From the IMG/VR virus record IMGVR_UViG_3300018839_000001: DNA of 64,000 nt; one strand, given 5' to 3'. Of this stretch, positions 1,358-62,607 are shown piece by piece (the first letter of the stretch is position 1; every line of letters begins with the position of its first letter). The position numbers and the translations under genes are program-made. The notes below the pieces were generated by a model. That model worked only from the letters and a program-made list of their open reading frames with translations. It had not been told where the DNA came from and did not search any database. Source of the stretch: a virus (lineage: Duplodnaviria; Heunggongvirae; Uroviricota; Caudoviricetes).

Positions 1358-1732
1358 TTATTCATTATTAATTAGTTTTGTAGTATAAATAGCAACTTTC
1401 CGATCTGTGTATTGACATGTTTTCTTTCCAATAATTTCAACCAATCCTTTTGCTCTAAGTTCATTCAAGCGCGGATGGACACTATTACGATCTGATGAAG
1501 GGACTAGATTTTTCTTATGTAAAAAAACTGCTAGTTCTTTGGCTGTAGCTCCATTTTCAAATGAGTTATGTAAATTTTCAAAAACGACACGTTGACGTTC
1601 ACTCAGAGTTTCTGAAACATGTGCATATGCTTCATTGCGCGTCTCCTTGGTGATGTCACTTGTTTTGTTCTTTTTGAATAAAGACGACAATCCACTAAAA
1701 AGTGATTCAGTAAAAGGCAACTTTGTAATCAT
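1358..1732 (-). CDS. hypothetical protein, possible winged-helix DNA-binding
   Basis: Track ORF. The ATAKELAVFL...RNSVHPRLNELRAKGLVE segment resembles a winged HTH. An SPBRE-like element lies inside its 3' end. Confidence 0.4.
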   Translation of the reverse strand: MITKLPFTESLFSGLSSLFKKNKTSDITKETRNEAYAHVSETLSERQRVVFENLHNSFENGATAKELAVFLHKKNLVPSSDRNSVHPRLNELRAKGLVEIIGKKTCQYTDRKVAIYTTKLINNE

Positions 1733-1743
1733 ATATCATTCTC

Positions 1744-2208
1744 CTATTCTTCTAAGTATTCAAAATTCAATTTCAAGACATAACCTTTTTTAAATATGTG
1801 TTCGTTTCCACACGTCATACAATATGTAGTATTTTCTTCAACTAGATTTACTCTTTTACTTGAGCAAGATGGGCAACTATTGATATCAAAGTCTCCTTCA
1901 ATTTTTGTGAAAACTTTATCAGATGTAACTTTCTCTTTAAGTGATTGCCCAAACTGCATGCAAGATTTCTTTACAGTAGTTGGATTAATTCCTAGCTCTT
2001 TTGCAATAACCATCCTAGGAACTCCATTTATATCTCTTTCAGCAATAATTTTTTTAAACTCATCTGTAAATGTCTTTTTGTATCTGCTATTTTCTTTATA
2101 TGTATTCAAAACATTTAATACATCGCTACTCGATATTTGAAAACTGTCACTTATAAATTCAATAGGGCTTCCTTCTGCATAGGCAGTTAAAATCTTTTCT
2201 ATTAACAC
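1744..2208 (-). CDS. hypothetical HTH protein with C-terminal C4 zinc ribbon
   Basis: HTH-like IAKELGINPTTVKK segment. C-terminal CPSC...CMTC. Confidence 0.4.
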   Translation of the reverse strand: MLIEKILTAYAEGSPIEFISDSFQISSSDVLNVLNTYKENSRYKKTFTDEFKKIIAERDINGVPRMVIAKELGINPTTVKKSCMQFGQSLKEKVTSDKVFTKIEGDFDINSCPSCSSKRVNLVEENTTYCMTCGNEHIFKKGYVLKLNFEYLEE

Positions 2209-2223
2209 ATAATTGCTCTCCTT

Positions 2224-2676
2224 TTAAAGTAAATGTCGGTCATAAATCAATGTTGCTCGTTCATTGTTAAAAAACTCATCTAGAACCTTAATTACAGGAA
2301 CTTGGTTGCCATCTTCTGATACACTTCGGCTAAACAATAATAGAGCAGTGAAGATATCTATTTCTCTGACTCCTTCTGGATTGTCAGCAGTGGCGTGTTC
2401 GTACTCTTCAATAGCATCCTTCTCATCTTTGGCTTTAACTAATGAGTAATATGGATCGTCAAATTCATAAAACTTTAAACCATCTAATTTTTTAACCTGA
2501 TCTATAATTTGATCAATTTGTTTTCCTAAACTAAAAGAATGAATATCTGAAACATCGGGACACACACCAACTTCACCAGCTACAGATAATTCCAATAATT
2601 TTTCGCGTACTTCGTTAGGGTTAACAAGCTTATCTGCTCCCACGCTTTCAGAAACAACCAAAAATTTTTTTGTCAT
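2224..2676 (-). CDS. acidic hypothetical protein
   Basis: Track ORF, Asp/Glu-rich (many D/E runs). No recognisable motifs. Confidence 0.45.
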   Translation of the reverse strand: MTKKFLVVSESVGADKLVNPNEVREKLLELSVAGEVGVCPDVSDIHSFSLGKQIDQIIDQVKKLDGLKFYEFDDPYYSLVKAKDEKDAIEEYEHATADNPEGVREIDIFTALLLFSRSVSEDGNQVPVIKVLDEFFNNERATLIYDRHLL

Positions 2677-2687
2677 TTCATTACCTC

Positions 2688-3143
2688 CTATTGTTTGCTT
2701 AAAGATTGTTTTACAATTTGATTTACAAGCTTCATATCTGCTCTACCTTTAAGCTCTTGGCTTGCAAGTTTCATCGCCATCCCCATATTTCCTCCAGAGA
2801 CTTTTACATATTCGACAATAGAACTTACGACATTTTCAACTTCACTTTCAGTTAATTGTTTTGGCAAATATAACATGAGCAATTGTTTTTCTGTTTCTTG
2901 CTTTGAAACATCGCGATCAACAGCTTTATACGCTTCAATCTCTTTGTCTAATTCTTTAATATTTCTTTGAATTACGGTTTGCACCTGATCATCGTTTAAT
3001 TGAGTGATGTCAGATAGTTTGAGAGTGATCTTTTCTTTTTCCAACTTTGAAACCAATAGCCTCAGCGTAGAAAGTTTGTTTTTATCCTTCGACTTCAAGG
3101 CATTTTTGGTATCATCTTTAATCTGTTGTACCAGTTCAGTCAT
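2688..3143 (-). CDS. YqeY/GatB-domain protein
   Basis: The whole sequence looks like a GatB_YqeY family member (…LKSKDKNKLSTLRLL…AYKAVDRDVSK…MGMAMKLASQELKGRADMKLVNQIV). RBS AAGGAG + 8 nt. Confidence 0.65.
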   Translation of the reverse strand: MTELVQQIKDDTKNALKSKDKNKLSTLRLLVSKLEKEKITLKLSDITQLNDDQVQTVIQRNIKELDKEIEAYKAVDRDVSKQETEKQLLMLYLPKQLTESEVENVVSSIVEYVKVSGGNMGMAMKLASQELKGRADMKLVNQIVKQSLSKQ

Positions 3144-3173
3144 AGTAGCATCTCCTTTAATATCTCACACAAA

Positions 3174-3194
3174 ACATTATTAATTAGTTTTGTA
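3174..3194 (-). promoter_or_regulatory. SPBRE-like conserved element (operator-like copy with no clear -10), 30 bp upstream of the YqeY-like start
   Basis: ACATTATTAATTAGTTTTGTA. A second copy lies 57 bp downstream of the promoter copy at 3229-3253. Confidence 0.6.
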
Positions 3195-3228
3195 TGAATG
3201 TTTTAATTTGGGTTATGCATTTATTATA

Positions 3229-3260
3229 GCATTATTAATTAGTTTTGTAAAGGTTTATTG
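3229..3260 (-). promoter_or_regulatory. SPBRE-type sigma-A promoter
   Basis: Gene orientation: TTTACA-aaactaattaataatgc(17)-TATAAT. Confidence 0.65.
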
Positions 3261-3861: not shown

Positions 3862-4236
3862 TCAATTTTTATCTGATAATTCATTATCAATTATTTTCTT
3901 TGTTGCTTTCAGAATAGCTTTTCTTAATTTTTTATTTGATGCAAGCTCTTCTTTGCCGACTTTCTCTAGATATGAGATAGTTATGTTGAGTGAATCTTCA
4001 ACTTCTATTCCTTTAATTAAATAATCGAGAGACACTTCATAATAATCGGACAACTTTTTGAGCATTTTTAAATTTGGTTTACGCTTTCCATTCTCATAGT
4101 TTGCATAAGTATTCTTTGCAACACCGATTGCTTCACCAACTTCTTCCATAGTTGGCTTAAAAGGAATCTTTTTTCTTAATTCTCGTAGCCTGTTGCCAAA
4201 TTCACTCACTTTCTTCATCCCCCGAGACGTCATCAT
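3862..4236 (-). CDS. XRE-family HTH transcriptional regulator
   Basis: RLRELRKK…PTMEEVGEAIGVAKNTYANYENGKRKP…LKKLSDYYEVSLDYLI is a classic HTH_3. The true start is probably MKKVSEF. Confidence 0.75.
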   Translation of the reverse strand: MMTSRGMKKVSEFGNRLRELRKKIPFKPTMEEVGEAIGVAKNTYANYENGKRKPNLKMLKKLSDYYEVSLDYLIKGIEVEDSLNITISYLEKVGKEELASNKKLRKAILKATKKIIDNELSDKN

Positions 4237-8766: not shown

Positions 8767-10362
8767 TTAGCTGGCGAGGTATGTTTCTGATTGCTCTTTA
8801 CGTCCTTTAATGAGACTGCCAATCACACCGACAATTGAAATATTATATTGCTCACTTTCCCACTCAATTATAATTTCATCGATGAGCGAGGATATGATTT
8901 TTTGCTTTGTTTCAAAAGAAATCTTATCTTGATTCTTAATTTCATTTTTAATCTGTCCAATAAATTTTATTAAATCCTTTTTATTCTGATTGTCGATTTC
9001 TTTATCTTGAATCTGATCCTCATATTTTGATATTTCAATTTTGATTAACTTTTCTTTTTCATTTAGTTTTTGTATATCTAAATCCATTTCGTTCTCTTCA
9101 ATATAACCTTTTTTAAATAATTGAAGTATTCTCTTTCGTTCTTTGGATATCTCCTCTAATTTAAACTTCAATAAATCGTATGCTTGTCTAACTGAATCAT
9201 TTGCTCTTTCTTCTTTTCCAGCGTGAACAATTTTCGAAGGATCAAAAATAAAATCATAAATCATTTCCCAAATTTGTTTTTCAATTTCGTTAGCTTTTAA
9301 AATTTTTGAACAACAACTTTTTGCACCTTCTCCGAAAACTCGACCATTCTTATTCACGCATCTATAATTTTTGTATGAATGTGTTGATGTAACCTCTCCT
9401 GTTACTTTTGATCTCGTTTTAGAAGTAGTTGTGTAGGACGAATATTTTGCACCGCAGTGAGCACATCTGATCATTTTTCTCAAAAGATACTGATGTTTCA
9501 CATTTCCTGAATGACTTGTATTTTTGACTCGTTGATTTTCTGCTAATGTAAATGTCGCGAAATCGACTATAGGAGGAACAGATACTTCGATCCATTCTTC
9601 TTTATCTCTATTTTCATAAGCTCTTTTTGGTTTACCTGATTTAGTTTTTTCGCCTTTAATCTTTTTCATTTTTTTCTTGTTATAATAAAATTTCCCAATG
9701 TATGTTTCATTTTTAAGAATTTTATTGATGGTGCTCTGATTCCACAAATGACTCTTTTTCATTTTTGTTTTGGCGCCCAATATGGAAAGTCGTTCACCAA
9801 TTTCTCTGATCTTCAACTTATCATAAACATACCATTGGTAAATTTTCCTAACAAATTTTGCTTCTTCTTTGTTGATAACTAATTGCCTATCTACATAGTC
9901 GTATCCATAAGGTGGTACACGCATAGGCATAACAAATCCATTTTTTACTGCCTTAATTGATCCTCTTCTTGTTCTTTTTTTGATTAATGCCAATTCATAC
10001 TCAGCGATTGACGACTGAATATTAAAAAAGAGCTTCCCTTCTTCTGTATTCTTATACTCAGTATCAACAAAAACAAGCTCTACGTTACTTTTTTCAAATT
10101 CAGTACAAACAAGAAGTCGGTCAATCATGTTCCGGCTTAGACGGTCAGGATGAACGATGATAATTCTTTCTATCTTGCCCAATTTCACATCTTCTCTTAA
10201 TTCATCCATCCGAGGTCTTTCAATATCTTCTCCAGAAAAACCTCTTTCTTCATATTCAAGAATAAGATCATCAGGAACATTTAACTCTTTCGCCTTCTTC
10301 AAACAAGCCTCTCTTTGATATTCAAGACTTGTTCCATGATCTACTTGCTTATCTGTGGACAC
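8767..10362 (-). CDS. large serine recombinase (integrase)
   Basis: Resolvase-type RVSTDKQ catalytic motif, IIVHPDRLSRN, recombinase domain, C4 zinc ribbon, coiled coil. The conserved N-terminal strand YTAIYTRVSTDKQ extends upstream of the track start (GTG at 10362) and has no canonical start codon. Confidence 0.9.
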   Translation of the reverse strand: MSTDKQVDHGTSLEYQREACLKKAKELNVPDDLILEYEERGFSGEDIERPRMDELREDVKLGKIERIIIVHPDRLSRNMIDRLLVCTEFEKSNVELVFVDTEYKNTEEGKLFFNIQSSIAEYELALIKKRTRRGSIKAVKNGFVMPMRVPPYGYDYVDRQLVINKEEAKFVRKIYQWYVYDKLKIREIGERLSILGAKTKMKKSHLWNQSTINKILKNETYIGKFYYNKKKMKKIKGEKTKSGKPKRAYENRDKEEWIEVSVPPIVDFATFTLAENQRVKNTSHSGNVKHQYLLRKMIRCAHCGAKYSSYTTTSKTRSKVTGEVTSTHSYKNYRCVNKNGRVFGEGAKSCCSKILKANEIEKQIWEMIYDFIFDPSKIVHAGKEERANDSVRQAYDLLKFKLEEISKERKRILQLFKKGYIEENEMDLDIQKLNEKEKLIKIEISKYEDQIQDKEIDNQNKKDLIKFIGQIKNEIKNQDKISFETKQKIISSLIDEIIIEWESEQYNISIVGVIGSLIKGRKEQSETYLAS

Positions 10363-11794: not shown

Positions 11795-12214
11795 TTACTC
11801 TCCTTCTGTTGTTACTTTTAATTTTCCATTCTCTAAAGAAAAGAAATTGATTTGTTTTTTCTCGGTGTTAAAATTGACTCTGGTAATTATTGATTTTTTA
11901 ACGAAATCTACACCATTTTTAGTAGACATTATTGATTTATCTACGAAGATGTGTGTGAATTTTTCATCTGCTTCTATTTGTGCAATTGGTGCAAAATAAA
12001 TCACACTTCCATCTGTAAAAAACTCTTTTCGCAATTGAGGTGAAGGCATTTGATAACCTGTTGTCTTTTTCCCTTCGGAAACCAAGTCTTTAACAACTTT
12101 CTGAAACATTGCCTCCCTTGCTCCTATAGAAGAGATATCTTGGCTATTAAAATATGTAATTAAAATTTTCTTTGGTTTATTCTCCATAATTAATATCATC
12201 AACTCCTTTGTCAT
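11795..12214 (-). CDS. hypothetical protein
   Basis: Track ORF, 139 aa. Confidence 0.45.
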   Translation of the reverse strand: MTKELMILIMENKPKKILITYFNSQDISSIGAREAMFQKVVKDLVSEGKKTTGYQMPSPQLRKEFFTDGSVIYFAPIAQIEADEKFTHIFVDKSIMSTKNGVDFVKKSIITRVNFNTEKKQINFFSLENGKLKVTTEGE

Positions 12215-13481
12215 ATCTAATACATTTAAAGCTAGGAAACCTCAAAGATGGTTGTCCTGTTTTTTCATCTTTAGACTCTTCGAAATATTGAACCTCGATA
12301 ATCTTTCCACAAATGAGGTCAGGATTATCACCAAATTCCCTTCTTTGATCAGGGGTGAATCCCGATCCAACACCAACGATATTGCCTTTGTATTCAACGT
12401 TTACTCTGGATAGCAATCCTTTGAACTGACCATCAATAGCTTTTTCAATTGATGTGACAATAAGGTCTGCTGTTTTGAATTTTTTCACTTTCAGTAAGCT
12501 ATCGGTTCGTTTTGTGGCATATAGTCCATCTGCCTTGTTAATCATAAGACCTTCATGATCTGCTTCTTCTGCCCATTTCATCAAGACAGAAATCATTTCT
12601 TTGTCTTCTCCTGCATAAAGAACTGGCAGGATTCTTATGTGATTTGAACTACTTCCAGCAAGGATTCCATCAAATAAATCAAGTTGATTTCTACGTTTTT
12701 CATATGTATTTTTTGATTTTCCATCTTTAAATTCTGCAAGAGGTAAAGCATCAAACATGTAAAACTCTAAATCTTTCTTCTCTCCATCTTTACGAACGAC
12801 TTTTTGTGTTGCTCTAAAAAGATCATCGGAAGAAAGGTTCTTTTCATTAGCAAGTAGAAGTTCTCCATCGAAAACCCATCCATCAGGTAAGCACCTGAAC
12901 TGTTCTTCTAACTCGGCCATTCCATTGATTTCTTTTCCTTGACGTGTAAAAAAGTTAACTCTACCCTCATCTTTGATTGCAACACATCGATTACCGTCAA
13001 GTTTTAATGTTACATAGAATTTGCCCTTTACTTTTGGTTCTTTCTTAGCATAGGATTCTGCTAACATTACTGAAAAACTTGGGATGAAACCTTTGCCGTA
13101 AACCTTGTTGATAGTTTTCTCGGTAATACCAACTTTTAAATCTTTTGTTGCAATTTGTTTTGCTAACTCTTTTTCATCATCAGTTTCAAGTCTATCCACA
13201 AAATATTGCACGCTTAAAATATCTGTATCTCTTCCACTATTGAGGCGTTTCAAATAATCCATCAAACCTTGAATGTCTCGAATAATCGTTACATATTCAT
13301 CAAGCTTTATGTTTTTATTTATTTTCTTAGTCGAGATTCCAGTCACTATGTATGGGTTGAACACAAACTTTAAAACTTCTTTAAACAATTCATTATCTTC
13401 ATACTTTTTCAGAATCGCCTCTTTACCGTTTCGAGATGATTCATTTTTTAATTCGTGAAAAATCTTTACTAACTCTTTCAT
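12177..13481 (-). CDS. ATP-dependent DNA ligase
   Basis: Adenylation motif I KLDGNR. Nucleotidyltransferase + OB organisation. RBS AAAGAGGTG. Confidence 0.8.
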   Translation of the reverse strand: MKELVKIFHELKNESSRNGKEAILKKYEDNELFKEVLKFVFNPYIVTGISTKKINKNIKLDEYVTIIRDIQGLMDYLKRLNSGRDTDILSVQYFVDRLETDDEKELAKQIATKDLKVGITEKTINKVYGKGFIPSFSVMLAESYAKKEPKVKGKFYVTLKLDGNRCVAIKDEGRVNFFTRQGKEINGMAELEEQFRCLPDGWVFDGELLLANEKNLSSDDLFRATQKVVRKDGEKKDLEFYMFDALPLAEFKDGKSKNTYEKRRNQLDLFDGILAGSSSNHIRILPVLYAGEDKEMISVLMKWAEEADHEGLMINKADGLYATKRTDSLLKVKKFKTADLIVTSIEKAIDGQFKGLLSRVNVEYKGNIVGVGSGFTPDQRREFGDNPDLICGKIIEVQYFEESKDEKTGQPSLRFPSFKCIRYDKGVDDINYGE

Positions 13482-13496: not shown

Positions 13497-13518
13497 TCCA
13501 TTATTAATTAGTTTTATA
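13497..13518 (-). promoter_or_regulatory. SPBRE-like element 28 bp upstream of the ligase start
   Basis: CCATTATTAATTAGTTTTATAT. Confidence 0.6.
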
Positions 13519-19254: not shown

Positions 19255-19806
19255 CTAAGAATATTGATTAATAATGTTTAAAATAATTTGCACTGTTTTC
19301 CTCAAGCCTTTACCTCGAACATTTTTGACCACATAATCAAAATTATCTCTATTCTTCATTTCATTTTCATAAGTTTCAATTCGTGATAAGGACTGTTCAA
19401 TGGTGTCACCTCTTAGAAGCATATTCGCTAGGCAATCCTCCTTGCTCATGTGTAGGAAGATCCCAACTGCATCTGGATATACTTCTTTTAATTGTTTATA
19501 TCCATGATAATCAGCGATTATATATGCATGGTTATATTTCTTCATAACAGTTTCAATTTGATGCTTGGTTATCCCATAGTAGTGACTTCCATAGACAACA
19601 TGTTCGACAAATTCACCATCATTCATTGCAGAAGTAAACTCTTTTTCTGTAAGAAAATAGTACGACTCGCCATCCACCTCACCTTTTCTTATAGGTCTAG
19701 TTGTTGTAGAGATACACTCTCCGATCATTTCAGTATGATTTTTAATTTCGTTCATAATCGTGGTCTTGCCAGCTCCACTTGGAGCTGTAATTATAAACAG
19801 TGCCAT
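19255..19806 (-). CDS. gmk: guanylate kinase
   Basis: P-loop APSGAGKTT. Gmk signature STTTRPIRKGEVDGESYYF. Confidence 0.8.
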   Translation of the reverse strand: MALFIITAPSGAGKTTIMNEIKNHTEMIGECISTTTRPIRKGEVDGESYYFLTEKEFTSAMNDGEFVEHVVYGSHYYGITKHQIETVMKKYNHAYIIADYHGYKQLKEVYPDAVGIFLHMSKEDCLANMLLRGDTIEQSLSRIETYENEMKNRDNFDYVVKNVRGKGLRKTVQIILNIINQYS

Positions 19807-19844: not shown

Positions 19845-19876
19845 TTATTATAACATTATTAATTAGTTTAGTCAAT
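19845..19876 (-). promoter_or_regulatory. SPBRE-type promoter (TTGACT-17-TATAAT)
   Basis: TATTATAACATTATTAATTAGTTTAGTCAA. Confidence 0.65.
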
Positions 19877-20491: not shown

Positions 20492-21250
20492 TTATTTTCC
20501 TGTAGAACCCCAACCACCAATTCCACGTGTGCTAGGTTTTTTAATTAACTCTTCATATGAAATATGTTCATCTTCTGCATCAGACTGTTTTAAGACAACA
20601 GCTTGAGCAATTGCTTTAGAGTACGGTACAAAATATGTATTTGTTTTTTTATCATGGAAAAGTTCGTCCACTTCACTTGAGATAACTACATCCCCGATCA
20701 ATGGGACTACTTGCAAAATAACTTCTCCTATATATGTCGCATCAATCAGTCCGCTTACATTAACCATTCCAATCGATCCGATTGATGAGCGTTCGTGTTT
20801 TAGGGATAACACATCTTCAAGATTTAGGTATGAGGCAAATCCCAAAGGGATTTTAGCTAATGTTAATTGTGGGATATGTAATTCGTAAATCTCTTTACCT
20901 TCACGAACAATTGGTTCTAATCTTGCATAGCAATCCCTACCACCATTTTCTTTATCTTTCGTAGGAATTACCCCTCCCTTAACTGATGCGAAGTATGTAA
21001 CCTTTTTATTTTTTTGCTTTCTTGATTTTAAGAATTTTTCTTTTGCTTTATATTTCAGCTTGTCGATCTCCCACATTTTTAACGTTTTTTCTTTTGTTGC
21101 ATTCTTATCAAGTTTAATTTCAACTTTTACCTCAAGAGAGTTTAGATCGATAGAGAGGACTTTCGCCTCTGTCTTTTCTTTAATAACCCAAACAATTTCT
21201 CCTACATTATAATAGCGTCTTTTCCCTTTTTCCATGTTCATTCTCCTCAT
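20492..21250 (-). CDS. dut: dUTPase with ~100-aa N-terminal extension
   Basis: dUTPase motifs GLIDATYIGEV and C-terminal TRGIGGWGSTG. The N-terminal 100 aa have no dUTPase homology. Confidence 0.75.
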   Translation of the reverse strand: MRRMNMEKGKRRYYNVGEIVWVIKEKTEAKVLSIDLNSLEVKVEIKLDKNATKEKTLKMWEIDKLKYKAKEKFLKSRKQKNKKVTYFASVKGGVIPTKDKENGGRDCYARLEPIVREGKEIYELHIPQLTLAKIPLGFASYLNLEDVLSLKHERSSIGSIGMVNVSGLIDATYIGEVILQVVPLIGDVVISSEVDELFHDKKTNTYFVPYSKAIAQAVVLKQSDAEDEHISYEELIKKPSTRGIGGWGSTGK

Positions 21251-45536: not shown

Positions 45537-45773
45537 TCAAATCTTCCTCCGATCTGTTTCCCAAGCAATGATAAACCTAGTCTGATCCTTGATAGAGAAT
45601 TTTTTCACTTTAAAGCCATATAGCCCATACTCTTTAGGATGATAACCAACTTCAATGCTAGTATTGAAAACCAAATCATTTTCATCAACCACGCCAGAGG
45701 CTTCTATCAGTGCTTTGTGTTTTAAAAAGTATCCTGAATGACTTTTTTCATACTTTAAAATTTTAATCTCCAT
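45537..45773 (-). CDS. hypothetical protein
   Basis: Track ORF, 78 aa. SPBRE promoter upstream. Confidence 0.4.
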   Translation of the reverse strand: MEIKILKYEKSHSGYFLKHKALIEASGVVDENDLVFNTSIEVGYHPKEYGLYGFKVKKFSIKDQTRFIIAWETDRRKI

Positions 45774-45791: not shown

Positions 45792-45816
45792 AACATTATT
45801 AATTAGTTTTGTGGTG
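45792..45816 (-). promoter_or_regulatory. SPBRE-like element
   Basis: AACATTATTAATTAGTTTTGTGGTG. Confidence 0.6.
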
Positions 45817-46098: not shown

Positions 46099-46124
46099 CT
46101 CATTATTAATTAGTTTTGTCAACT
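46099..46124 (-). promoter_or_regulatory. SPBRE-type promoter (TTGACA-…)
   Basis: CTCATTATTAATTAGTTTTGTCAACT. Confidence 0.6.
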
Positions 46125-49731: not shown

Positions 49732-50442
49732 TCATCCACCTCGTTTAACTTTCTTTTCTAACGCCTTTCTTTTCATTCTCTCTTGATTTAATTTGTGTTC
49801 AAGCTCTTTAATTTTCTCTTTTAGTTTTGCCTCATCCTTATATGCTTTCTTAATTCTTAATAAATGTGGCATAATCGAAGTTTTCACAGAATGAAAATAA
49901 GCAGAATAATCGGGATATTTCTTTCGAGCCTGTTTAAAGAAAGGAATATAAAATTCCTCTGTTTCCTTTACCTGTTTCATTTCATGTTTCCTATTTGATT
50001 CATTCAATGTGCTAAAATTATGCTTTCTGTCCGCCGCTTTTATTAGGCAGGCTCCCAAGCATATTAAAATATTATTTAAATAGTCTTTTAAATTTTCTTC
50101 AATTTTATAATCAATATCATCTTGTTTTGTGACACTCAAAACTAAGTGAGCAACATCTTTCCCATATTGATCCTCAATTAAATAATAGTCCACCTCTGGA
50201 ATATCTTCTATTGAATCATGAAGTATACAAGCTGTAATAATTGATTCATTCCTGATCCCATGATTCAATAAATCCTGAGCTGTATCAACTAAATGATAAT
50301 AATAATGGCTTCCATCATGCCTCATATAATTGTTGTTTGCATTCATTGTCTCGATCATCCAATACAAAGCTCTTAAGGCATTGTTGTAGTTCAATTGTTT
50401 TAAATCGTTTTTTAACTGAGCAACCCTTGCTTCCTTTGCCAT
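49732..50442 (-). CDS. HD-domain hydrolase of the RelA/SpoT (small alarmone hydrolase) type
   Basis: YYYHLVDTA…ILHDSIEDIPE fits the SpoT-type HD signature HxxxV…LHDxxED. Confidence 0.6.
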   Translation of the reverse strand: MAKEARVAQLKNDLKQLNYNNALRALYWMIETMNANNNYMRHDGSHYYYHLVDTAQDLLNHGIRNESIITACILHDSIEDIPEVDYYLIEDQYGKDVAHLVLSVTKQDDIDYKIEENLKDYLNNILICLGACLIKAADRKHNFSTLNESNRKHEMKQVKETEEFYIPFFKQARKKYPDYSAYFHSVKTSIMPHLLRIKKAYKDEAKLKEKIKELEHKLNQERMKRKALEKKVKRGG

Positions 50443-50468: not shown

Positions 50469-50502
50469 TATTATTATAACATTATTAGTTAGTTTTGTAA
50501 AT
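50469..50502 (-). promoter_or_regulatory. SPBRE-type promoter (variant ATTAGTTAG)
   Basis: ATTATTATAACATTATTAGTTAGTTTTGTAAATG. Confidence 0.6.
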
Positions 50503-50538: not shown

Positions 50539-52251
50539 TCAACTTTTCACATAATCGTGTAATATCACCTGTGGTATAGCTACTAATTTTCTCGTTGCAA
50601 AATTAAACCACTCGTTCATTGTTAGTTGACCTACTACATCAATCATGTCAAAATAACCTAGTTCTGACGCGTATTCTTCGTTAACTCTAAATTTAATTAA
50701 TTCCATATCATTTAAAGTTCCTATTTTTACTGTCTCTCTTGTCTCACCAATACAAGACGGCTCTTCTACCGATATACCATTAACTCGAACAATCACTTTA
50801 GGGAATCCATTCCCTGTAAGCAGATTAAATTTGTCCAACTCTTTTACATATTGATCAACCTCATCTACGCTGATATCCAGATCGTAATATACAGTAGGCT
50901 TCACATCTTCAAGAGAAGGCATATGTTTTTCAATATATTTCTCTAGATCAGGAAGTAAATCTTGAGATATCTCAATACCTCCTGCACCTTCATGTCCAAG
51001 AGCATCAAGCTCTCCATCAAATTGATTTAAAAACCTCTTAAACTTAAATCCGTTATAGCTTCGAAAACTTCCTGATAACTTACCGTTGTGTATACGCCCA
51101 ACAATCACAGGGCGCTTGTATTCTTCTGATAGCTGTTGAGCTACAATACCATTAAATCCTTTACTTGATTGTTCATCAGTAACAATAAGAACCTTCTTGG
51201 TGTCGTCAATGTTCTTTTTGTATTGCTCAGTAATCTCTTTTTGCTTTTCTTTTCGATGCTGATTTAATTTGTGCATTTGTAGGCGAATTTTTTTACAAAC
51301 CTTATCATCATCTTCTAACAATATATCGATTGCTAATTTGATGTTATCCATACGTGCCGCTCCATTTAGCATTGGAGCAATGGTGAACCCAATTGCATCG
51401 CCTTTCATTTTGTACGTGTTCACTTTTCCACCTTTTAAAATGCGAACAAGACCAGTATTCTTCATATTTCTTAATCCTTGCATGATTAAATATCTGTTTT
51501 CTAAGATATCTAATCTCATAACATCCGCATAGAGACCAACTGCCACCAAATCAATGTACTGCCAAACGTCTACCTGATTTAATGTATCCTCCATTACTTG
51601 AATAGTTTTAAATACTACTCCCGCACCACTCAAATACTTGTTAGGGTATTCGCATCCATCCTGCTGTGGATTAACTAATAGCACATAAGGATTCTTGCAT
51701 TCAATAGCATGGTGATCTAAGATTATAATATCTGTATTTAATTTTTCTTTTATAAATTTACAAGTCTCTACATCATTTGAAGATGAGTCAATTAAAATCA
51801 GCAAGTCCGCATTGCGAATCTTATCTGTATTTAACTTATTATGATCAATCCGCTCAGCATCTTTTGATGGATCAAGACTACTGACTTTAATCATCTCTGT
51901 AATGCCGTGTCCATCACTTCTTTCACCATATATGTAATCAACATTATCGGTGTAATTTTTCAAATATCTCAACATGATTGTTGTAGCTGTCAACCCATCC
52001 GCATCTGGATCATATGAAACAATTATTCTTTCATTCTTATCGATTGCCTTTATGATACGGTTGCTTGCATCTTGGATATTTTTCATGGAGTATGGATCGT
52101 GTAATTCCACCTCTGTAGGATTTAAAAATTTTTGATAATCTTCGATGCCTCTGATTTTTGCAATCCTTTCTAGGATCGAGTCATCATTATTTGGCTTTCT
52201 TATAGGCTTTCTTTGTATCCAATTCATAATAAATAACACCTTCTTCTGCAA
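50539..52251 (-). CDS. RecJ-like DHH-family ssDNA exonuclease
   Basis: DHH motifs (…YDPDADGLTA…, DHH, GGGH-like GHEGAGG) plus DHHA1. Confidence 0.8.
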   Translation of the reverse strand: MQKKVLFIMNWIQRKPIRKPNNDDSILERIAKIRGIEDYQKFLNPTEVELHDPYSMKNIQDASNRIIKAIDKNERIIVSYDPDADGLTATTIMLRYLKNYTDNVDYIYGERSDGHGITEMIKVSSLDPSKDAERIDHNKLNTDKIRNADLLILIDSSSNDVETCKFIKEKLNTDIIILDHHAIECKNPYVLLVNPQQDGCEYPNKYLSGAGVVFKTIQVMEDTLNQVDVWQYIDLVAVGLYADVMRLDILENRYLIMQGLRNMKNTGLVRILKGGKVNTYKMKGDAIGFTIAPMLNGAARMDNIKLAIDILLEDDDKVCKKIRLQMHKLNQHRKEKQKEITEQYKKNIDDTKKVLIVTDEQSSKGFNGIVAQQLSEEYKRPVIVGRIHNGKLSGSFRSYNGFKFKRFLNQFDGELDALGHEGAGGIEISQDLLPDLEKYIEKHMPSLEDVKPTVYYDLDISVDEVDQYVKELDKFNLLTGNGFPKVIVRVNGISVEEPSCIGETRETVKIGTLNDMELIKFRVNEEYASELGYFDMIDVVGQLTMNEWFNFATRKLVAIPQVILHDYVKS

Positions 52252-52384: not shown

Positions 52385-52408
52385 ACATCATTATTAATTA
52401 GTTTTATG
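52385..52408 (-). promoter_or_regulatory. SPBRE-like element (proximal)
   Basis: ACATCATTATTAATTAGTTTTATG. Confidence 0.6.
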
Positions 52409-52508: not shown

Positions 52509-52540
52509 TAATATAACATTATTAATTAGTTTTGTAAATA
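52509..52540 (-). promoter_or_regulatory. SPBRE-type promoter (distal)
   Basis: TAATATAACATTATTAATTAGTTTTGTAAATA. Confidence 0.65.
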
Positions 52541-55234: not shown

Positions 55235-55825
55235 CTAGTCATCTAAAAAATCAGTGATATCTGTATGTTTAGAAGGCTTTTTATAACTATTTTCAAAGAT
55301 ATACTCTTCTTCATTTATGTTTTCAAAATGTTTTCTAATCTGTCTTTCCTGCTCTTCTTTTTGTCTTCTTCGCTCTTCAACAATTGACAACTTATTGCAC
55401 ACAATAGTCAATCCATATCTAATTGCATTTGTTGCTCCACTAAAAGACTTCTTTCTATTTGCATTTTCAATTGTTTCGGAACAGTATTCGAAAGTTTCTG
55501 CAATTAAATCGTAAGAATAACCTTCTTTATATTTATAATCATGCTTTCCAAAAAACTCTGTTCCATTTCTTAAATCTTGTAGATATGGGTAAATGTTATT
55601 TGGAAACTTTTTTAAACCGTATATGTTTTTTATTGTTTCAACTAGCCTATCAAGTTCTTTCCTCTCTTTTTCTCGAAACTCTTTTTCTTTTAAATGTTTT
55701 TCCCAACAATGCTTGTGATAATATTTCTTCTGCGGCTTTTTCTTCCCTACATATTCAAACTCCATTTCATCTACATGTGTATCATCTAATCCACAATGCT
55801 GACACTTTCTTGTCATTTTAGCCAT
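55235..55825 (-). CDS. hypothetical protein with N-terminal zinc finger
   Basis: CQHCG…HKHCWEKH. Confidence 0.4.
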   Translation of the reverse strand: MAKMTRKCQHCGLDDTHVDEMEFEYVGKKKPQKKYYHKHCWEKHLKEKEFREKERKELDRLVETIKNIYGLKKFPNNIYPYLQDLRNGTEFFGKHDYKYKEGYSYDLIAETFEYCSETIENANRKKSFSGATNAIRYGLTIVCNKLSIVEERRRQKEEQERQIRKHFENINEEEYIFENSYKKPSKHTDITDFLDD

Positions 55826-55850: not shown

Positions 55851-55885
55851 GATTATTATATCATTATTAATTAGTTTGGTCAATC
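55851..55885 (-). promoter_or_regulatory. SPBRE-type promoter (TTGACC-17-TATAAT)
   Basis: GATTATTATATCATTATTAATTAGTTTGGTCAATC. Confidence 0.65.
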
Positions 55886-58421: not shown

Positions 58422-58452
58422 TATTTTATCATTATTAATTAGTTTTATTAGA
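58422..58452 (-). promoter_or_regulatory. SPBRE-like element
   Basis: TTATTTTATCATTATTAATTAGTTTTATTAG. Confidence 0.6.
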
Positions 58453-59593
58453 AAGGTAAATCATCATCAGAGATGTCAATCGGCTTTCCATCGTTTGCGA
58501 ATGGATCGTCATCAGCATCAAAAGGATTGCTAGATTCTTTTTTCGATTTTCCACCTAATTCATTTTGAAGGTCTCCTTCTTTTTGGAGCACACCATTATC
58601 TACAAAATCCTCTTCTTTATACATTTTTCTTTCCCATGCATCAATACCTTCAATTCTCATTTCTTGAATGTAATTTCGAATGGTGTATTTCTGTGCATGT
58701 GCAGGTTTAGACCTTCCTCCAAGAGATTTCAATAATTCATCTGGATTCTCTTCCTCATCCTCAGATTCCTCTACAACCACTTGATTCAAAGCGTTTCCGA
58801 ATACCGTAACAAAGTCTCCAAACTTAATACGTTTTAAAAACGAATCTCCAAGCTTCTTCATACCTTCATCAATTCCGTCTTGACCATTGGAAAAATCGAT
58901 TACAAATTGAGAATCATGCCAATCTTTATTATAATCAATTGTTCGACCAGTTATATAGACCTTATTTTGTTCCTTGTCCAATTCTGCATCAACATAAACC
59001 ATGTCTTGCTCAAAATATGTAACTTCCTCAAATTTTTCACTTTCAAAATCAATATCTTTTAATCTATGTACTTTTTCTATTTGAAAGTCTTTTCTCTCAA
59101 CCGTCTTGCCTTGTTGATTCTCATATGTACTATATCGAATCTTGCCTTCCACTACTACACTGTCATTATTACTTAATTGATCATAAATTTCTTTCGAGGC
59201 AACATAAGAGGGTACACCCTTACTATTTAATTTACCATTTTCATCATATTCAAGGCCAATTCTCGATTGTAACACTGCATATCCTGACTCCCTAAGCTCA
59301 TCTTCTTTCTCTACCCACTCTGCAAAAGGAATCCTTTCTCCTTTATAAGACTTATTCTCTTCTTTTGCTTTTTTTGCTTTTTCGCTATTCCATAAGAAAA
59401 CCTCATCTGGTTTAAAATCAAACATAGAAACCATCATTTCATTATTCGGGCTTGTTTTCACTCCAAATCGTAAGCTTCTATATAACTTGCCTTGATTTTT
59501 GGAAACATCCTCTTTAAAAGCTCCGTCCTTATCGATTCGAGTCACTTTCCCTTTAAATCTAAAGCTATTCTTAGTTTGTTGCAGTTCTGCCAT
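58448..59593 (-). CDS. SSB-like ssDNA-binding protein with acidic C-terminal tip
   Basis: Ends …DISDDDLPF (canonical SSB tip DDDIPF). OB-fold-like N-terminal region. Confidence 0.6.
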   Translation of the reverse strand: MAELQQTKNSFRFKGKVTRIDKDGAFKEDVSKNQGKLYRSLRFGVKTSPNNEMMVSMFDFKPDEVFLWNSEKAKKAKEENKSYKGERIPFAEWVEKEDELRESGYAVLQSRIGLEYDENGKLNSKGVPSYVASKEIYDQLSNNDSVVVEGKIRYSTYENQQGKTVERKDFQIEKVHRLKDIDFESEKFEEVTYFEQDMVYVDAELDKEQNKVYITGRTIDYNKDWHDSQFVIDFSNGQDGIDEGMKKLGDSFLKRIKFGDFVTVFGNALNQVVVEESEDEEENPDELLKSLGGRSKPAHAQKYTIRNYIQEMRIEGIDAWERKMYKEEDFVDNGVLQKEGDLQNELGGKSKKESSNPFDADDDPFANDGKPIDISDDDLPF

Positions 59594-59607: not shown

Positions 59608-59634
59608 ATTCATTATTAATTAGTTTTGTACTGA
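59608..59634 (-). promoter_or_regulatory. SPBRE-like element (proximal)
   Basis: GATTCATTATTAATTAGTTTTGTACTG. Confidence 0.6.
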
Positions 59635-59666: not shown

Positions 59667-59700
59667 ATTATTATAACATTATTAATCATTTTTGTCAAGG
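59667..59700 (-). promoter_or_regulatory. SPBRE-type promoter (distal; variant AATCATTTTTG; TTGACA-…-TATAAT)
   Basis: ATTATTATAACATTATTAATCATTTTTGTCAAGG. Confidence 0.6.
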
Positions 59701-59702
59701 CG

Positions 59703-60089
59703 TTATAAAACATTCTTCATAATGTTTTTGTGAGGGTTAGAAACAAAGTTTATGTAAATTTTCTCTAACGTCACTCTTCCACTATCTAATGCCTTGTTTA
59801 TAATTTCAATGTCTTCTGGTGAGAAAGATTGCATAAAAGTTTCTTCAAATATTTTATGAATCCCATGAGTACGGCAATTATCTAAAAATCTATCTAAAGT
59901 CATTTGCGAGTTTGAAATTTTATATTCTTTGAAATCGAGCAAATCATCCAATTTGCTTCTATTTCTCTTATAGAATTTTTTAAAGAACAGATTGCAATCA
60001 TCTTCTGACTTCAATATCCCTTTTGCAATTGAAGGCAGTGATAAAGATTGGATGAATTGTTCGGCCACTTCCACAAATACTTGTAACAT
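59703..60089 (-). CDS. hypothetical protein
   Basis: Track ORF, 128 aa. Confidence 0.45.
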   Translation of the reverse strand: MLQVFVEVAEQFIQSLSLPSIAKGILKSEDDCNLFFKKFYKRNRSKLDDLLDFKEYKISNSQMTLDRFLDNCRTHGIHKIFEETFMQSFSPEDIEIINKALDSGRVTLEKIYINFVSNPHKNIMKNVL

Positions 60090-60229
60090 AAATTAACCTC
60101 TCCCTTTTATTTAGTTGTACACTCTTGATCGCCAATCCAAAAACCGATCATGTGTTCGTATTTTTTCTGTATGGTTACTATATCATAAGACTTTAGTAAT
60201 GTCTACTCTTTTTTTGGTTATGTATGTAG

Positions 60230-60260
60230 AATAAGGGTAAAACTTTACTTACCCTTATTC
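60230..60260 (-). terminator. Rho-independent terminator
   Basis: AAGGGUAA-aacuuu-UUACCCUU + U-rich. Overlaps the stop of the HTH gene. Confidence 0.6.
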
Positions 60261-60535
60261 TGATACTCTTCTTTCCACTTCTCTTTTTCCTTCTTCTTTT
60301 TCTCTACATCAATTTGAACTTCATTGAAAATGTCTGGTATATTTACATTTAAAACCTGTGCAATTGCCCAGGCATAAAGCAATTTCCAAGTAGACTGATT
60401 CGACAATAGGCTCATAAACCCTTTATAGGAAAGGTCTAACCCATATTTTTCTTTTATCAGTTCATATAAATCCTTATATTCACCAATGCCTCTGCTTTCT
60501 AGAAGCATTTTCAATCTTTCTTTATTAATGTGCAT
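60245..60535 (-). CDS. small XRE/Cro-like HTH protein
   Basis: ERLKMLLESRGIGEYKDLYELI…FMSLLSN…AIAQVLNVNIPDIF. Track ORF starts at 60634 inside the upstream gene. The start is more likely MHINKERLK. Confidence 0.5.
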   Translation of the reverse strand: MHINKERLKMLLESRGIGEYKDLYELIKEKYGLDLSYKGFMSLLSNQSTWKLLYAWAIAQVLNVNIPDIFNEVQIDVEKKKKEKEKWKEEYQNKGK

Positions 60536-60575
60536 CTCGATCTTATGAATGGTGTAGGGTTTCTTGTTGCTTGCT

Positions 60576-61643
60576 CTACTCAACTTTATCATCTCCTTCA
60601 ACAACTTGCGGATACGTCTTAACAATATTTTCAATTGTTAGAAATCCTCTTAAATTGGTAGCAGATTTAACGTTAAAATGCTCTGCAACCATTTGCCTAT
60701 CTTGATAAGAAAGCACACCATCTTTTACAAGTTGGCTTGCATAATAAATCATCCCACTTCTCTGGAGAAACTTAGATGTTAAATAATCAATACCTAGGTT
60801 TTCTGCGAGTTGATTTATCCTCGTGAATAGGACATGCTTTTTAATAGGACTTCTCCAATTTTGCAAGTTTGAAATCGATGGCCTGAATACATACTTGTTA
60901 TCGACCAAATCCATATAAGGTTTAACATTATTTTTCAAATGTGATATATTACCATTCTTCTTCATGTAAACCTTTTGATTCATTGCTCCTTTAAGTAAAT
61001 AGAGCGTCCTATCGTCCACTGGCAAATACCTTTCAGTGAACTTAATCGGTTCAAAATCATTATCACTATTTCCTTCTTCGAATACATTTTTTAACCTTAA
61101 AATTTTATTATTGAAATCAATATCTGTCTTCTCAAAGTATCTAATTTCCGATAAATTCTTCCCACCTACTCCTAAAAAGTAAAGTCTCAACAATGCAGAG
61201 TCTTGATAATTTTCAGTTAAATCTTCGTATCTTCTCAATTGTTTCTCTGTAATGTATTCTTCTGCCTCTGTTACATATTTTTCGAAATCCGTTGGCTTTA
61301 AATCTTGGAGTACATTTTCATTAGTCAGTCCTTTTCGTATCGACCACTTCAAATAAGATGAAATTATTCTCGCATAGCCTTCAACAGTATTTTTGTGTTT
61401 TGAGTTAAAACCATATAATATTGTTTCAACTTCTTGGAAATTGAATTGATTCAAATCTTTTTTCAATGCGTTTTCATATTCTGCGGTAATGGTAAATATT
61501 CTCCTGTAACTGGTAACTGTAGCTTCTGAAATACTATGGTTTTCAACCATTTCAGATAGATAATCTTCTTTTACTTTTGCGTTAAATAAATCATTATTAA
61601 TTTCTTTTGTCATGTTCATCACCATACCAAAATCATCTCCCAA
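60576..61643 (-). CDS. putative lysogeny/master repressor candidate (YopR/MrpR-like, recombinase-like fold?)
   Basis: 355-aa protein after a ~320-nt leader that starts at an SPBRE promoter. Followed by a small HTH gene and a terminator. Assignment is by context only. Confidence 0.3.
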   Translation of the reverse strand: MGDDFGMVMNMTKEINNDLFNAKVKEDYLSEMVENHSISEATVTSYRRIFTITAEYENALKKDLNQFNFQEVETILYGFNSKHKNTVEGYARIISSYLKWSIRKGLTNENVLQDLKPTDFEKYVTEAEEYITEKQLRRYEDLTENYQDSALLRLYFLGVGGKNLSEIRYFEKTDIDFNNKILRLKNVFEEGNSDNDFEPIKFTERYLPVDDRTLYLLKGAMNQKVYMKKNGNISHLKNNVKPYMDLVDNKYVFRPSISNLQNWRSPIKKHVLFTRINQLAENLGIDYLTSKFLQRSGMIYYASQLVKDGVLSYQDRQMVAEHFNVKSATNLRGFLTIENIVKTYPQVVEGDDKVE

Positions 61644-61742
61644 TTCGTTTTATGTAGATTCTCATTTATTTGCTTATATCAATGGTTCTAGGGTGATTTT
61701 CTGTTTAAAATTTTATCATTTAATGTATATATAGTCAAAAAT

Positions 61743-61763
61743 ATGATTAATAATGTTAGCTTA
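61743..61763 (+). promoter_or_regulatory. degenerate SPBRE-like element in opposite (plus) orientation within the leader
   Basis: AGTCAAAAATATGATTAATAATGTTAGC. The core ATTAATAATGTTA matches the gene-orientation SPBRE. Confidence 0.3.
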
Positions 61764-61963
61764 GAACCTATATAAGACGGAGTGTATTCGAATTGTGAGT
61801 GATTAAAAAGCGTCTTATTGACAGCCTTTTATGCTCAGTCCTTTCTGTTTATTTATGTTTATTTTTACTTTGTCTTATGAATTGTATACACATTATTTTA
61901 CTTATTTTACCACAACCTTTTCAAAGAATTGTTCACACCCTCCTTCCCTTATCGTATATCACT

Positions 61964-61996
61964 ATTGTATCATTATTAATGAGTTTTAATCAAACA
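61964..61996 (-). promoter_or_regulatory. SPBRE-type promoter (TTGATT-18-TACAAT) for the 60576..61643 gene
   Basis: TATTGTATCATTATTAATGAGTTTTAATCAAAC. Confidence 0.55.
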
Positions 61997-62010
61997 TAAT
62001 AATTTGATGT

Positions 62011-62403
62011 TTATTTCTGGCAGTTTTTATTGGTTAATAATTGGCTAAATAATTTTTTGTTTTTTGTGTCAAGCGCTTGATCAATCTGCTGTTTCTTAAT
62101 CAAACGAAGCATATGTTCGTGAAATTCCTCTACCTCTTTAATTGGTGTATATAATGACTTCGCTTTTAAATCAATTACGCGCTTTAACATTTCGTCAACG
62201 AAATAGCACCTTGGAGAAATGTCTAAAGTATAACCCTTTTCAGAAACGGCCATAATTGTAGCCCTTTCTCCAAGGTGCTGACTCATTTCTTTTGTGAGTA
62301 TACTCGTTATGTCCGAATTTTGCATTGAATATGTTTCACCAATAATTAATTCCTTTTTAATTCTTATTTGATCACCAGCTTTGAATTTAAAGACATTTCT
62401 CAT
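62011..62403 (-). CDS. hypothetical protein
   Basis: Track ORF, 130 aa. Confidence 0.45.
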   Translation of the reverse strand: MRNVFKFKAGDQIRIKKELIIGETYSMQNSDITSILTKEMSQHLGERATIMAVSEKGYTLDISPRCYFVDEMLKRVIDLKAKSLYTPIKEVEEFHEHMLRLIKKQQIDQALDTKNKKLFSQLLTNKNCQK

Positions 62404-62577
62404 ATGTTCTCTTCCTTTACTCAGTTTTATTCTGTTTGTTTTAATGTTAATAGGTAGATTGTTGAACGCCAGTTCTTTATGTTATTACTGCTAATCATAT
62501 TGTATCTCTCCCATTTTCAATGATAACATTTTTCAATTAAAAAGTGTTTGTCAATTATATTTCATTATTTATTAAAA

Positions 62578-62607
62578 ATTATATCAAATTTATTATCTTT
62601 TGTCAAC
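62578..62607 (-). promoter_or_regulatory. consensus sigma-A promoter TTGACA-17-TATAAT (SPBRE-related spacer)
   Basis: Minus strand: TTGACAaaagataataaatttgaTATAAT. Confidence 0.6.

Follow-up and report, generated by a model that had tools for sequence, protein, structure and literature searches.

The 64,000-nucleotide stretch of tailed-phage DNA analyzed here (IMG/VR record IMGVR_UViG_3300018839_000001, Caudoviricetes; hereafter the window) carries 22 copies of a conserved 19-nt block, which reads ACAAAACTAATTAATAATG in gene orientation. Most likely, these copies form the predicted operator regulon of an MrpR/SroF-type master repressor, encoded at 60576..61625, in a Tsamsa-like prophage of the Bacillaceae; from the sequence comparisons described below, we put the probability that the 19-nt core is the operator of this protein at roughly 80%. 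The type of system is known from phage SPbeta, but here it occurs in a different phage lineage and with a different box sequence. An earlier note on this DNA had proposed a single-repressor operator regulon, and this interpretation appears to be essentially right, as indicated by the conservation of the core, including its promoter-less copies, and by the presence of an MrpR homologue.

Repeat copies inside promoters and next to ribosome-binding sites

When both strands were scanned with the plus-strand pattern of the earlier note, allowing up to three mismatches, 22 matches were found, on the plus strand only, against a mean of 0.22 and a maximum of 2 in shuffled sequence, which is in agreement with the ~21 copies first reported. 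A position weight matrix (PWM) scan of both strands, as had been proposed, gave these 22 sites scores of 20.9-29.8, with the runner-up at 15.5 and a maximum of 10.7 in the opposite orientation. This gap in scores means that the copies are a discrete family of sites (Table 1). Since all genes of the window lie on the minus strand, all 22 copies are gene-oriented. Across the aligned copies 13 core positions never change, and free variation is confined to position 3. The core is asymmetric, since it matches its own reverse complement at no more than 12 of 19 positions, a weak overlap for a sequence so rich in AT. Several coordinates given earlier were off by 1-11 nt (25141 became 25153, 52385/52509 became 52389/52517, and 59667 became 59677), and the former right-hand limit at 62607 turned out to belong to a sigma-A promoter that lacks the element (PWM score -5).

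The cores are strongly biased towards gene starts. Although 88% of the window is coding, 19 of the 22 are intergenic (binomial p = 7e-15), and 86% lie at most 150 nt upstream of a start codon, compared with 30% of random positions. The earlier note placed nearly all copies 25-45 bp before a start codon. Their upstream position stands, but the range is too narrow: for 19 copies, 17-139 nt separate the end of the core from the start codon, and no more than 7 copies are within 25-45 nt. Similarly, the five tandem pairs do exist, at corrected spacings of 55, 66, 91, 128 and 307 bp. In four of these pairs a promoter-type copy comes first and a box-only copy follows 55-307 bp further downstream. The spacings correspond to 5.2, 6.3, 8.7, 12.2 and 29.2 helical turns, five pairs being too few for a conclusion on phasing. 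The idea that such pairs act cooperatively or by looping found no support, and the homologous repressor of phage phi3T is reported to occupy its 26-bp box as a monomer (bioRxiv 10.1101/2025.11.27.690993).

At 22 copies per 64 kb the element is dispersed rather than clustered, for which reason iterons or a replication origin were rejected, and a mobile element was rejected for the lack of flanking repeats. Other parts of the phage genome hold more copies, which track gene orientation where genes diverge.

The element marks replication and nucleotide-metabolism genes. Most of the targets named earlier were verified, namely thyA and the genes for the YqeY-like protein, DNA ligase, guanylate kinase (gmk), dUTPase, NrdH-like glutaredoxin, topoisomerase B, the nucleotidyltransferase, the HD hydrolase, RecJ, the AAA_24 ATPase and the YorF/SSB-like protein. 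The label of early genes is imprecise for them, and a class of sigma-A promoters without the element exists.

Nine copies are of the promoter type. In these, TTG or TTT directly before the core completes a -35 hexamer, TTGACA or TTTACA, whose second half is the first three bases of the core. At the other end, a single base separates the core from TATAAT or from a sequence that differs from it once. The terminal TG of the core thereby forms an extended -10, and TAT is conserved at the expected start site. In the full layout, TTGACA-AAACTAATTAATAATG-n-TATAAT, the 17-bp spacer of a near-consensus promoter is filled by the box, as it is in ~13 copies, which bears out the earlier description of a sigma-A promoter with a conserved spacer. 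Five further promoter-type copies have weaker hexamers. Among the eight best sigma-A matches in the window (at least 11/12, gene orientation), seven carry the core.

Seven other copies (1363, 3175, 13499, 25062, 29328, 45794 and 59611) are box-only: as had been noticed for several of them, they lack a usable -35 or -10 and yet retain the whole core, which ends 17-37 nt before the start codon, against the Shine-Dalgarno sequence. That the core persists even in copies without promoter function means that it is under selection for a role other than the binding of polymerase. In a relative that is 91-96% identical (IMG/VR 2728369130 contigs), changes were found at 4 of 304 core positions versus 98 of 1841 flanking positions (Fisher p = 0.001). 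The cores thus change ~4 fold less than their flanks, and three of the four core changes affect the degenerate position 3. Four prophage variants that are ~96% identical have kept every orthologous copy, the degenerate ones with their exact deviations.

These data bear on the alternative that the copies are a family of strong sigma-A promoters only, with no dedicated DNA-binding protein. Their spacer would then be conserved through common descent, through gene conversion, or because an AT-rich spacer with TG optimises polymerase binding. The near-consensus -35, TG and -10 around the core and the TAT at the expected start site are in concordance with this, as is the fact that the AATAATG-n-TATAAT half is common to phages with divergent MrpR proteins. 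However, the seven box-only copies keep their 19 nt without a -35 or -10, and where they abut the ribosome-binding site (RBS) they cannot promote the following gene. Moreover, strong promoters with other spacers occur in this phage and its relatives (62606, 60205, 61738 and the AATCCG class described below), the 5' half of the spacer is phage-specific, and the homologous repeat of SPbeta is by experiment a repressor site (PMC10516654). We therefore consider the promoter-only explanation unlikely.

The second promoter class just mentioned is marked by a conserved tag in front of TTGACA, AATCCG or ATTCGC, and has a spacer that varies; it is common to the window and the phages FADO, Tsamsa and pW2 (many sites in L112, L113 and L114). 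Its member at 62606 is the sole strong box-less promoter of the window. In Tsamsa and pW2 these promoters are found mainly in the small-gene region upstream of mrpR. Another regulator may bind the tag, or it may be an UP-like element. From the existence of this class it follows that in these phages a promoter can be strong without the conserved spacer.

Many box promoters are followed by a GC-rich hairpin within ~10-40 nt of the predicted start (59630-59676 and 30150-30226 in the window; L040, L088 and L060). One example is GGGAGATCACTTCTCCC-TTTT, between the copies at 59677 and 59611, and the hairpin of a relative in L060 (~1290-1340) resembles a short terminated RNA. Such hairpins could be 5' stabilising stem-loops or attenuators.

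An MrpR-like protein as the predicted box binder

The repressor candidate of the earlier note proved to be a full-length homologue of MrpR/YopR/SroF, with the start revised from 60576..61643 to 60576..61625. Its product matches SPbeta in tblastn (E = 1e-20), the structures PDB 8a0a, 8bj6 and 8bjv over residues 13-335 (E = 1e-18), and the Pfam domains MrpR_N_CB (76.4 bits) and MrpR_C_cat (49.5 bits; PF22822 and PF22823, cut-offs 27). Tyrosine 304 of SPbeta MrpR, at the position of the nucleophile, is aligned with phenylalanine in the window, FADO, Tsamsa and pW2, a result that depends on the alignment, and Xer recombinase models reach only 22-32 bits with this protein, against cut-offs of 220-335. 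Judged by the nucleophile position and these scores, the protein appears to lack the catalytic set of a tyrosine recombinase. The larger open reading frames (ORFs) of the window include an Xre/RstR-like helix-turn-helix (HTH) protein at 3862..4209; otherwise, neither a sigma factor nor another obvious regulator came to light among them.

Homologues of this protein are annotated as integrase or site-specific tyrosine recombinase in Tsamsa (gp94), pW2 (gp107), Kirov, Thrax and other phages. Because of the phenylalanine at the nucleophile position in the aligned FADO, Tsamsa and pW2 proteins, these annotations are probably wrong.

In SPbeta, MrpR binds the SPbeta repeated element (SPBRE; Lazarevic 1999 as cited in PMC10516654; Kohm et al., NAR 2023), as found by chromatin affinity purification sequencing and electrophoretic mobility shift assay, and it represses PaimR and PyosX (PMC10516654). 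The repeat that we derived from the ten published MrpR-bound promoter regions reads TAGACAAAtAcAAAtAATATGTATAtAAT. All ten have the core AATATGTATA in TAGACA-17-TATAAT promoters with a conserved 17-bp spacer, and three of them (yonX, yopM and yopV) are RBS-adjacent and without a -10. That the window element might be SPBRE itself, as the earlier note had considered, was rejected: the window PWM found no copy in SPbeta (best score 13.3, equal to background), and the window has no intergenic copy of the SPBRE core. The element is instead a counterpart with a different specificity. Both phages have a homologous full-length repressor of integrase fold with both MrpR Pfam domains, and a long, asymmetric, dispersed and gene-oriented repeat inside a -35/17-bp/-10 sigma-A promoter, with extra RBS-adjacent copies that lack a -10. 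They also share a large serine recombinase as the real (in the window, the likely) integrase and the replication gene order yorF, yorG, yorM, yorH, yorI, yorJ, yorK. They differ in that the repressors are only 27% identical, the specific parts of the boxes are unrelated, and the density is higher in the window, with 22 copies in its 64 kb, whereas for the 134 kb of SPbeta 10 sites bound by MrpR have been published; moreover, the window phage falls into the Tsamsa/FADO-like group (~160 kb genomes) and not into Spbetavirus.

According to a preprint of 2025, the phi3T homologue SroF acts as a monomer, wrapping almost completely around the DNA and contacting 24 of the 26 bp of the asymmetric element Phi3TRE, and boxes and repressors are specific to each phage (bioRxiv 10.1101/2025.11.27.690993). 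Recognition by an SroF-type monomer would account for a window element that is long, non-palindromic, fixed in orientation and conserved at nearly every position. PDB 9rd5 and 9rgl probably belong to this system. Most phi3T boxes abut the Shine-Dalgarno sequence, as many copies of the window do, and in both phages a LexA-type box is located one ORF downstream of the repressor gene. In contrast, Phi3TRE is rich in A-tracts and shares no specific sequence with the window core, few phi3T boxes are within a canonical -35/-10 spacer, and the window protein at the position of Sar has neither sequence nor predicted-fold similarity to it. The arrangement also recalls lambda CI, where repressor sites overlap lytic promoters and the repressor gene is autoregulated, as is predicted here. 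However, the lambda operators are short, dyad-symmetric, dimer-bound and confined to two loci, whereas the 19-nt element is asymmetric and is associated with more than 20 promoters.

HTH repressors typically bind as dimers to short dyad-symmetric sites. For an asymmetric core of 19 nt in fixed orientation this is a poor fit, which bears on the possibility that a protein other than the MrpR homologue reads the box: the product of the coupled ORF 60245..60634, the HTH protein at 3862..4209, or a lytic-cycle activator. This would be compatible with the HTH_3 and RstR-like matches of 3862..4209 and with the conservation, in all relatives, of the small ORF that overlaps the end of mrpR. In addition, further genes of the SPbeta sro operon reportedly contribute to repression (bioRxiv 10.1101/2025.11.27.690993). 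Yet the promoters already have sigma-A consensus, which makes an activator unnecessary, and MrpR/SroF is the sole experimentally established binder of such elements; another binder thus seems very unlikely. An activator-dependent middle promoter of the T4 MotA type was rejected in view of TTGACA/TTTACA being kept at 17-bp spacing with TG and TATAAT.

We regard it as extremely improbable that the element acts at the RNA level, as a leader, processing site or translational operator, or that it is the promoter of a phage RNA polymerase. Box-only copies do lie in 5' leaders directly before the Shine-Dalgarno sequence, and a conserved motif of ~20 nt before genes does resemble T7-type promoters. 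However, the core of a promoter-type copy is upstream of the predicted start site and hence absent from that transcript, and by inspection the core has no apparent complementarity to a GGAGG-type RBS. A T7-type polymerase promoter was rejected, since the largest ORF of the window has 728 aa, all ORFs of at least 500 aa are assigned elsewhere, and the sigma-A hexamers on either side of the core are spaced precisely as in canonical promoters.

The prediction that the MrpR homologue is the binder draws further on a comparison of boxes, taken from promoter-anchored alignments, with MrpR identity. Homologues are ~50% identical in Tsamsa-like phages, ~30% in phages of Alicyclobacillus, Geobacillus and Brevibacillus, 27% in the SPbeta group and 24% in staphylococcal SPbeta-like phages. 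The box is the same at 99% MrpR identity (window and close relative) and at 81% (Tsamsa and pW2). At 62% (window and L149) the 5' half (ACWAAACTA) and TAATG are the same and the middle is variable; at 50-59% (FADO compared with the window or Tsamsa; L150 and L151 compared with the window) the 5' half becomes AGTG(A/C)(A/T)AC; and at 27-29% (SPbeta and phi3T) the boxes are unrelated. The residues K233, F234, H237 and R238 with which alpha-13 of the phi3T protein reads its box correspond to K, H, F and T in the window, K, Q, Y and R in FADO, and K, F, Y and R in Tsamsa and pW2. This graded co-divergence fits with box recognition by MrpR.

FADO, Tsamsa and pW2 have MrpR homologues (48-50% identity) at the matching position of the gene order, and sigma-A promoters with a conserved spacer that ends in AATAATG-n-TATAAT; FADO has RBS-adjacent copies as well. 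The 5' half of the spacer is different, reading AGTGATAC in FADO and being largely variable and then A-rich in Tsamsa and pW2. In the literature searched we found no published description of these repeated promoter elements.

Predicted control of the lytic genes and of the repressor

In the lysogen, the MrpR-like protein would sit on the boxes, covering promoter-type copies from -35 to -10. Bound repressor would exclude the sigma-A holoenzyme, such that the replication, recombination and nucleotide-metabolism operons would remain silent. The box-only copies at RBSs may serve as additional repressor sites against read-through in this co-oriented genome, a roadblock step that we propose because MrpR binds the equivalent sites of SPbeta, as published. 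The weaker box at the distal mrpR promoter would provide negative autoregulation. Upon DNA damage, LexA repression of a gene downstream of mrpR would be relieved, and the repressor would probably be inactivated.

The promoter with box 61971 lies 345 nt upstream of the mrpR-like gene. Its degenerate core is identical in five relatives, and its -10 is TACAAT in the window and TATAAT in four of the five. This box is the candidate site of autoregulation. The box-like site 21, within the gene itself, could be another autoregulatory site or a chance match fixed by the coding sequence. An inverted partial box, ATGATTAATAATG, is located on the plus strand at 61743-61755, directly upstream of the -35 of the proximal, box-less mrpR promoter (Table 1). 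The 16-nt stretch that reaches to 61758 equals the 3' part of copy 59677 with its first flanking bases. The partial box could be a repressor site of opposite orientation that modulates mrpR expression. Directly after the distal promoter, a strong Shine-Dalgarno sequence and a 9-codon mini-ORF (61907-61936) are found, with a leader of ~300 nt behind them. The encoded peptide lacks conservation because relatives have a different frame, and any role of this mini-ORF would be regulatory and not coding.

The small ORF 60245..60634 is translationally coupled to mrpR, with an overlap that is conserved in all relatives, and its product has no significant similarity to SPbeta YopS and no Pfam, PHROG or NCBIfam match. 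Behind it, a conserved box-less promoter is followed by the LexA-like box at 60145-60158, which matches the B. subtilis LexA consensus at 12 of 14 positions. This box is conserved in L145 and in L149 (62% identical MrpR), and in phi3T and SPbeta the same scan found such a box shortly before the sar gene that has been published for each. By its location behind the LexA-like box, the 128-aa ORF at 59703..60089 is the positional analogue of the Sar antirepressor. Its product has no similarity to phi3T Sar in BLASTP and no match in the PDB, and it could be a different kind of SOS-controlled antirepressor. The exact sequence GAAC-N4-GTTC occurs once in the window (62464), within a mini-ORF and at chance-level frequency, and we attach no meaning to this site.

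We also considered that the RBS boxes form a second control layer, in which the DNA-encircling monomer roadblocks read-through, and that half-boxes are recognized in a modular fashion; as a joint proposal this seems possible but doubtful. Promoter-less boxes that abut the RBS make up 7 of the 22 copies of the window and recur in SPbeta, phi3T and FADO. Roadblocks of this kind would insulate the co-oriented lytic operons, including from the repressor's own transcript. Under modular recognition, the 5' half-box would change between immunity groups, with the 3' half being shared with the extended -10, and a change in one half of the box could then yield new immunity types while leaving promoters intact.

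Several points weigh against an MrpR/SroF-type operator regulon. Shared ancestry alone would predict a similar co-divergence of protein and box. The AATAATG-n-TATAAT half is common to the window, FADO and Tsamsa at an MrpR identity of only ~50%, and the conservation of this -10-proximal half may in part be due to the extended -10 (-16 region) and not to contacts with the repressor. For the box-only copies, the role as roadblocks is our inference. None of the sroA-E/yopM-Q genes that adjoin the repressor gene in SPbeta was found beside it in the window, and no arbitrium (AimR-like) or YopP/YopQ-like genes were seen within ~8 kb upstream of mrpR, in the relatives L145-L148 or in the window. Finally, the AF2 model of the candidate antirepressor, for whose family the alignment comprised two homologues, is all-helical and unlike Sar, at a pLDDT of 60.

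If the prediction is correct, repression by the integrase-fold MrpR/SroF proteins extends beyond SPbeta and the arbitrium phages to large Tsamsa/FADO-like siphoviruses and Bacillaceae prophages. A gene that is routinely annotated as integrase or tyrosine recombinase in such phages, Tsamsa being an example, would be a repressor gene. The new putative repressor-box pair comprises a 19-nt core with 22 natural variants, including conserved weak ones, and this set could serve to study the reading of a long asymmetric site by an integrase-fold monomer. It would also offer a simple rule by which to predict the silent and the expressed prophage genes of a lysogen. As the principle has already been published, the result is incremental.

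The phage and its other features

The window does not belong to a described phage, since Megablast against known phages gave only patches of 72-77% identity to pW2, vB_BcoS-136 and Thrax phages. Viral and genome collections, scanned for exact 16-mers and 19-mers, returned mostly single chance matches in unrelated AT-rich contigs; the only true relatives that they found were IMG genome 2728369130, metagenome 3300019132 and a Metabacillus metagenome-assembled genome with a contig 99.9% identical to part of the window. The genes run from the MrpR-like protein through two small ORFs, the YorF/SSB-like protein, the YorG/Sak4 ATPase, a 3D-domain protein, YorH, a helicase and a primase-like protein to RecJ, followed by nrd, topoisomerase and nucleotide-metabolism genes. 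This order matches the replication module of SPbeta and those of the ~160-kb siphoviruses Tsamsa, FADO and pW2. Near-identical copies of the region, with a neighbouring protein at 98% identity, are present on bacterial contigs of 0.6-4.4 Mb that have the same mrpR, yorF, yorG, recJ order and the same boxes. Since close relatives reside in bacterial contigs of this size, the phage is temperate.

The large serine recombinase at 8767..10362 is likely the true integrase, for which reason the MrpR-like protein would not be needed for integration. SprA is its counterpart in SPbeta.

Table 1. Copies of the 19-nt box and other features in the window
Feature	Position	Strand	Remarks
Box copy 1	1363..1381	-	Box-only; no usable -35/-10; within 3' end of ORF 1358..1732; end 37 nt upstream of the 40-codon ORF preceding thyA (311..1228)
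Box copy 2	3175..3193	-	Box-only; end 31 nt upstream of YqeY-like gene 2688..3143
Box copy 3	3230..3248	-	Promoter type, TTTACA / TATAAT (11/12); 55 bp upstream of copy 2
Box copy 4	13499..13517	-	Box-only; end 17 nt upstream of ATP-dependent DNA ligase gene 12177..13481
Box copy 5	19854..19872	-	Promoter type, TTGACT / TATAAT; upstream of guanylate kinase gene 19255..19806
Box copy 6	21264..21282	-	Weak promoter type, -10 TAAAAT, no -35; upstream of dUTPase-like gene 20492..21235
Box copy 7	25062..25080	-	Box-only; end 19 nt upstream of NrdH-like glutaredoxin gene 24809..25042, the head of the nrd operon
Box copy 8	25153..25171	-	Promoter type, TTGACA / TATTAT; 91 bp upstream of copy 7; overlaps end of topoisomerase A gene
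Box copy 9	29328..29346	-	Degenerate (3 mismatches), box-only; end 27 nt upstream of topoisomerase B gene 27342..29300
Box copy 10	30227..30245	-	Promoter type, TTTACT / TATAAT; upstream of RlaP-type nucleotidyltransferase gene 29365..30087; 139-nt leader with hairpin
Box copy 11	33365..33383	-	Promoter type, TTTACA / TATAAT; upstream of small ORF 33137..33355
Box copy 12	45794..45812	-	Box-only; end 20 nt upstream of ORF 45537..45773, which heads a ~12 kb run of small ORFs without further box copies
Box copy 13	46101..46119	-	Promoter type, TTGACA / GAAAAT; 307 bp upstream of copy 12
Box copy 14	50480..50498	-	Promoter type, TTTACA / TATAAT; upstream of HD-domain hydrolase gene 49732..50442; preceded by terminator-like hairpin
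Box copy 15	52389..52407	-	Intermediate type, -10 TGTAAT; upstream of 49-codon ORF and recJ 50539..52251
Box copy 16	52517..52535	-	Promoter type, TTTACA / TATATT; 128 bp upstream of copy 15
Box copy 17	55862..55880	-	Promoter type, TTGACC / TATAAT; upstream of YorH-like gene 55235..55825 and helicase gene
Box copy 18	58430..58448	-	Weak promoter type, -10 TAAAAT; upstream of AAA_24 (YorG/Sak4-like) ATPase gene
Box copy 19	59611..59629	-	Box-only, perfect core; end 17 nt upstream of YorF/SSB-like gene 58448..59593; abuts AGGAGG RBS
Box copy 20	59677..59695	-	Promoter type, TTGACA / TATAAT (12/12); variant core ACAAAAATGATTAATAATG; 66 bp upstream of copy 19, hairpin between both
Box-like site 21	61592..61610	-	2 mismatches; within codons 3-9 of mrpR-like gene
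Box copy 22	61971..61989	-	Degenerate core TTAAAACTCATTAATAATG; distal promoter of mrpR-like gene
mrpR/sroF-like gene	60576..61625	-	349 aa, best start; integrase-fold protein; proposed box binder
Proximal mrpR promoter, box-less	61710..61738	-	TTGACT-17-TAAAAT with TG; ~85 nt upstream of start
Sigma-A promoter without element	62578..62606	-	AATCCG-TTGACA-17-TATAAT; second class; conserved in relatives
Box-less promoter downstream of mrpR operon	60177..60205	-	TAGACA-17-TATAGT; conserved in relatives
LexA-like box	60145..60158	-	CGAACACATGATCG; just downstream of promoter 60177..60205
128-aa ORF	59703..60089	-	phrog_32520; behind LexA-like box, one ORF downstream of repressor gene
Large serine recombinase gene	8767..10362	-	Resolvase, Recombinase and Zn ribbon domains

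Just 3' of the serine recombinase gene, an imperfect inverted repeat of ~50 bp is found at 8686-8740 (CTATGTTAGTTG...AACGCTTTGCCGTTATG...CAACTAGCATAG). Two IMG/VR contigs of a relative both end at 8704-8720, with a 17-nt overlap, AACGCTTTGCCGTTATA. This may be the core of attP, and the contigs may end there because integrated and excised forms are not alike. The integrase gene is adjoined by the gene for an LXG-domain polymorphic toxin (6657-8528; weak HNH-like C-terminal match, 40% identical to SPbeta YokI) and by that for the Xre/RstR-like HTH protein (3862-4209; HTH_3 and RstR-like matches). Neither has a repressor box before it, and both look like lysogenic-conversion cargo.

The 40-codon ORF behind box 1363 (1203-1325) has a good RBS and overlaps the 5' end of the thyA frame. 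The thyA ORF itself (311-1228) has a GTG start, and its Pfam match begins at residue 22; it is possible that thyA is an interrupted gene. Two small ORFs at 43800-44367 have 83-85% protein identity to SPbeta YoqR and YoqS, far above the 25-50% of other shared genes, which suggests recent exchange with SPbeta-like phages.

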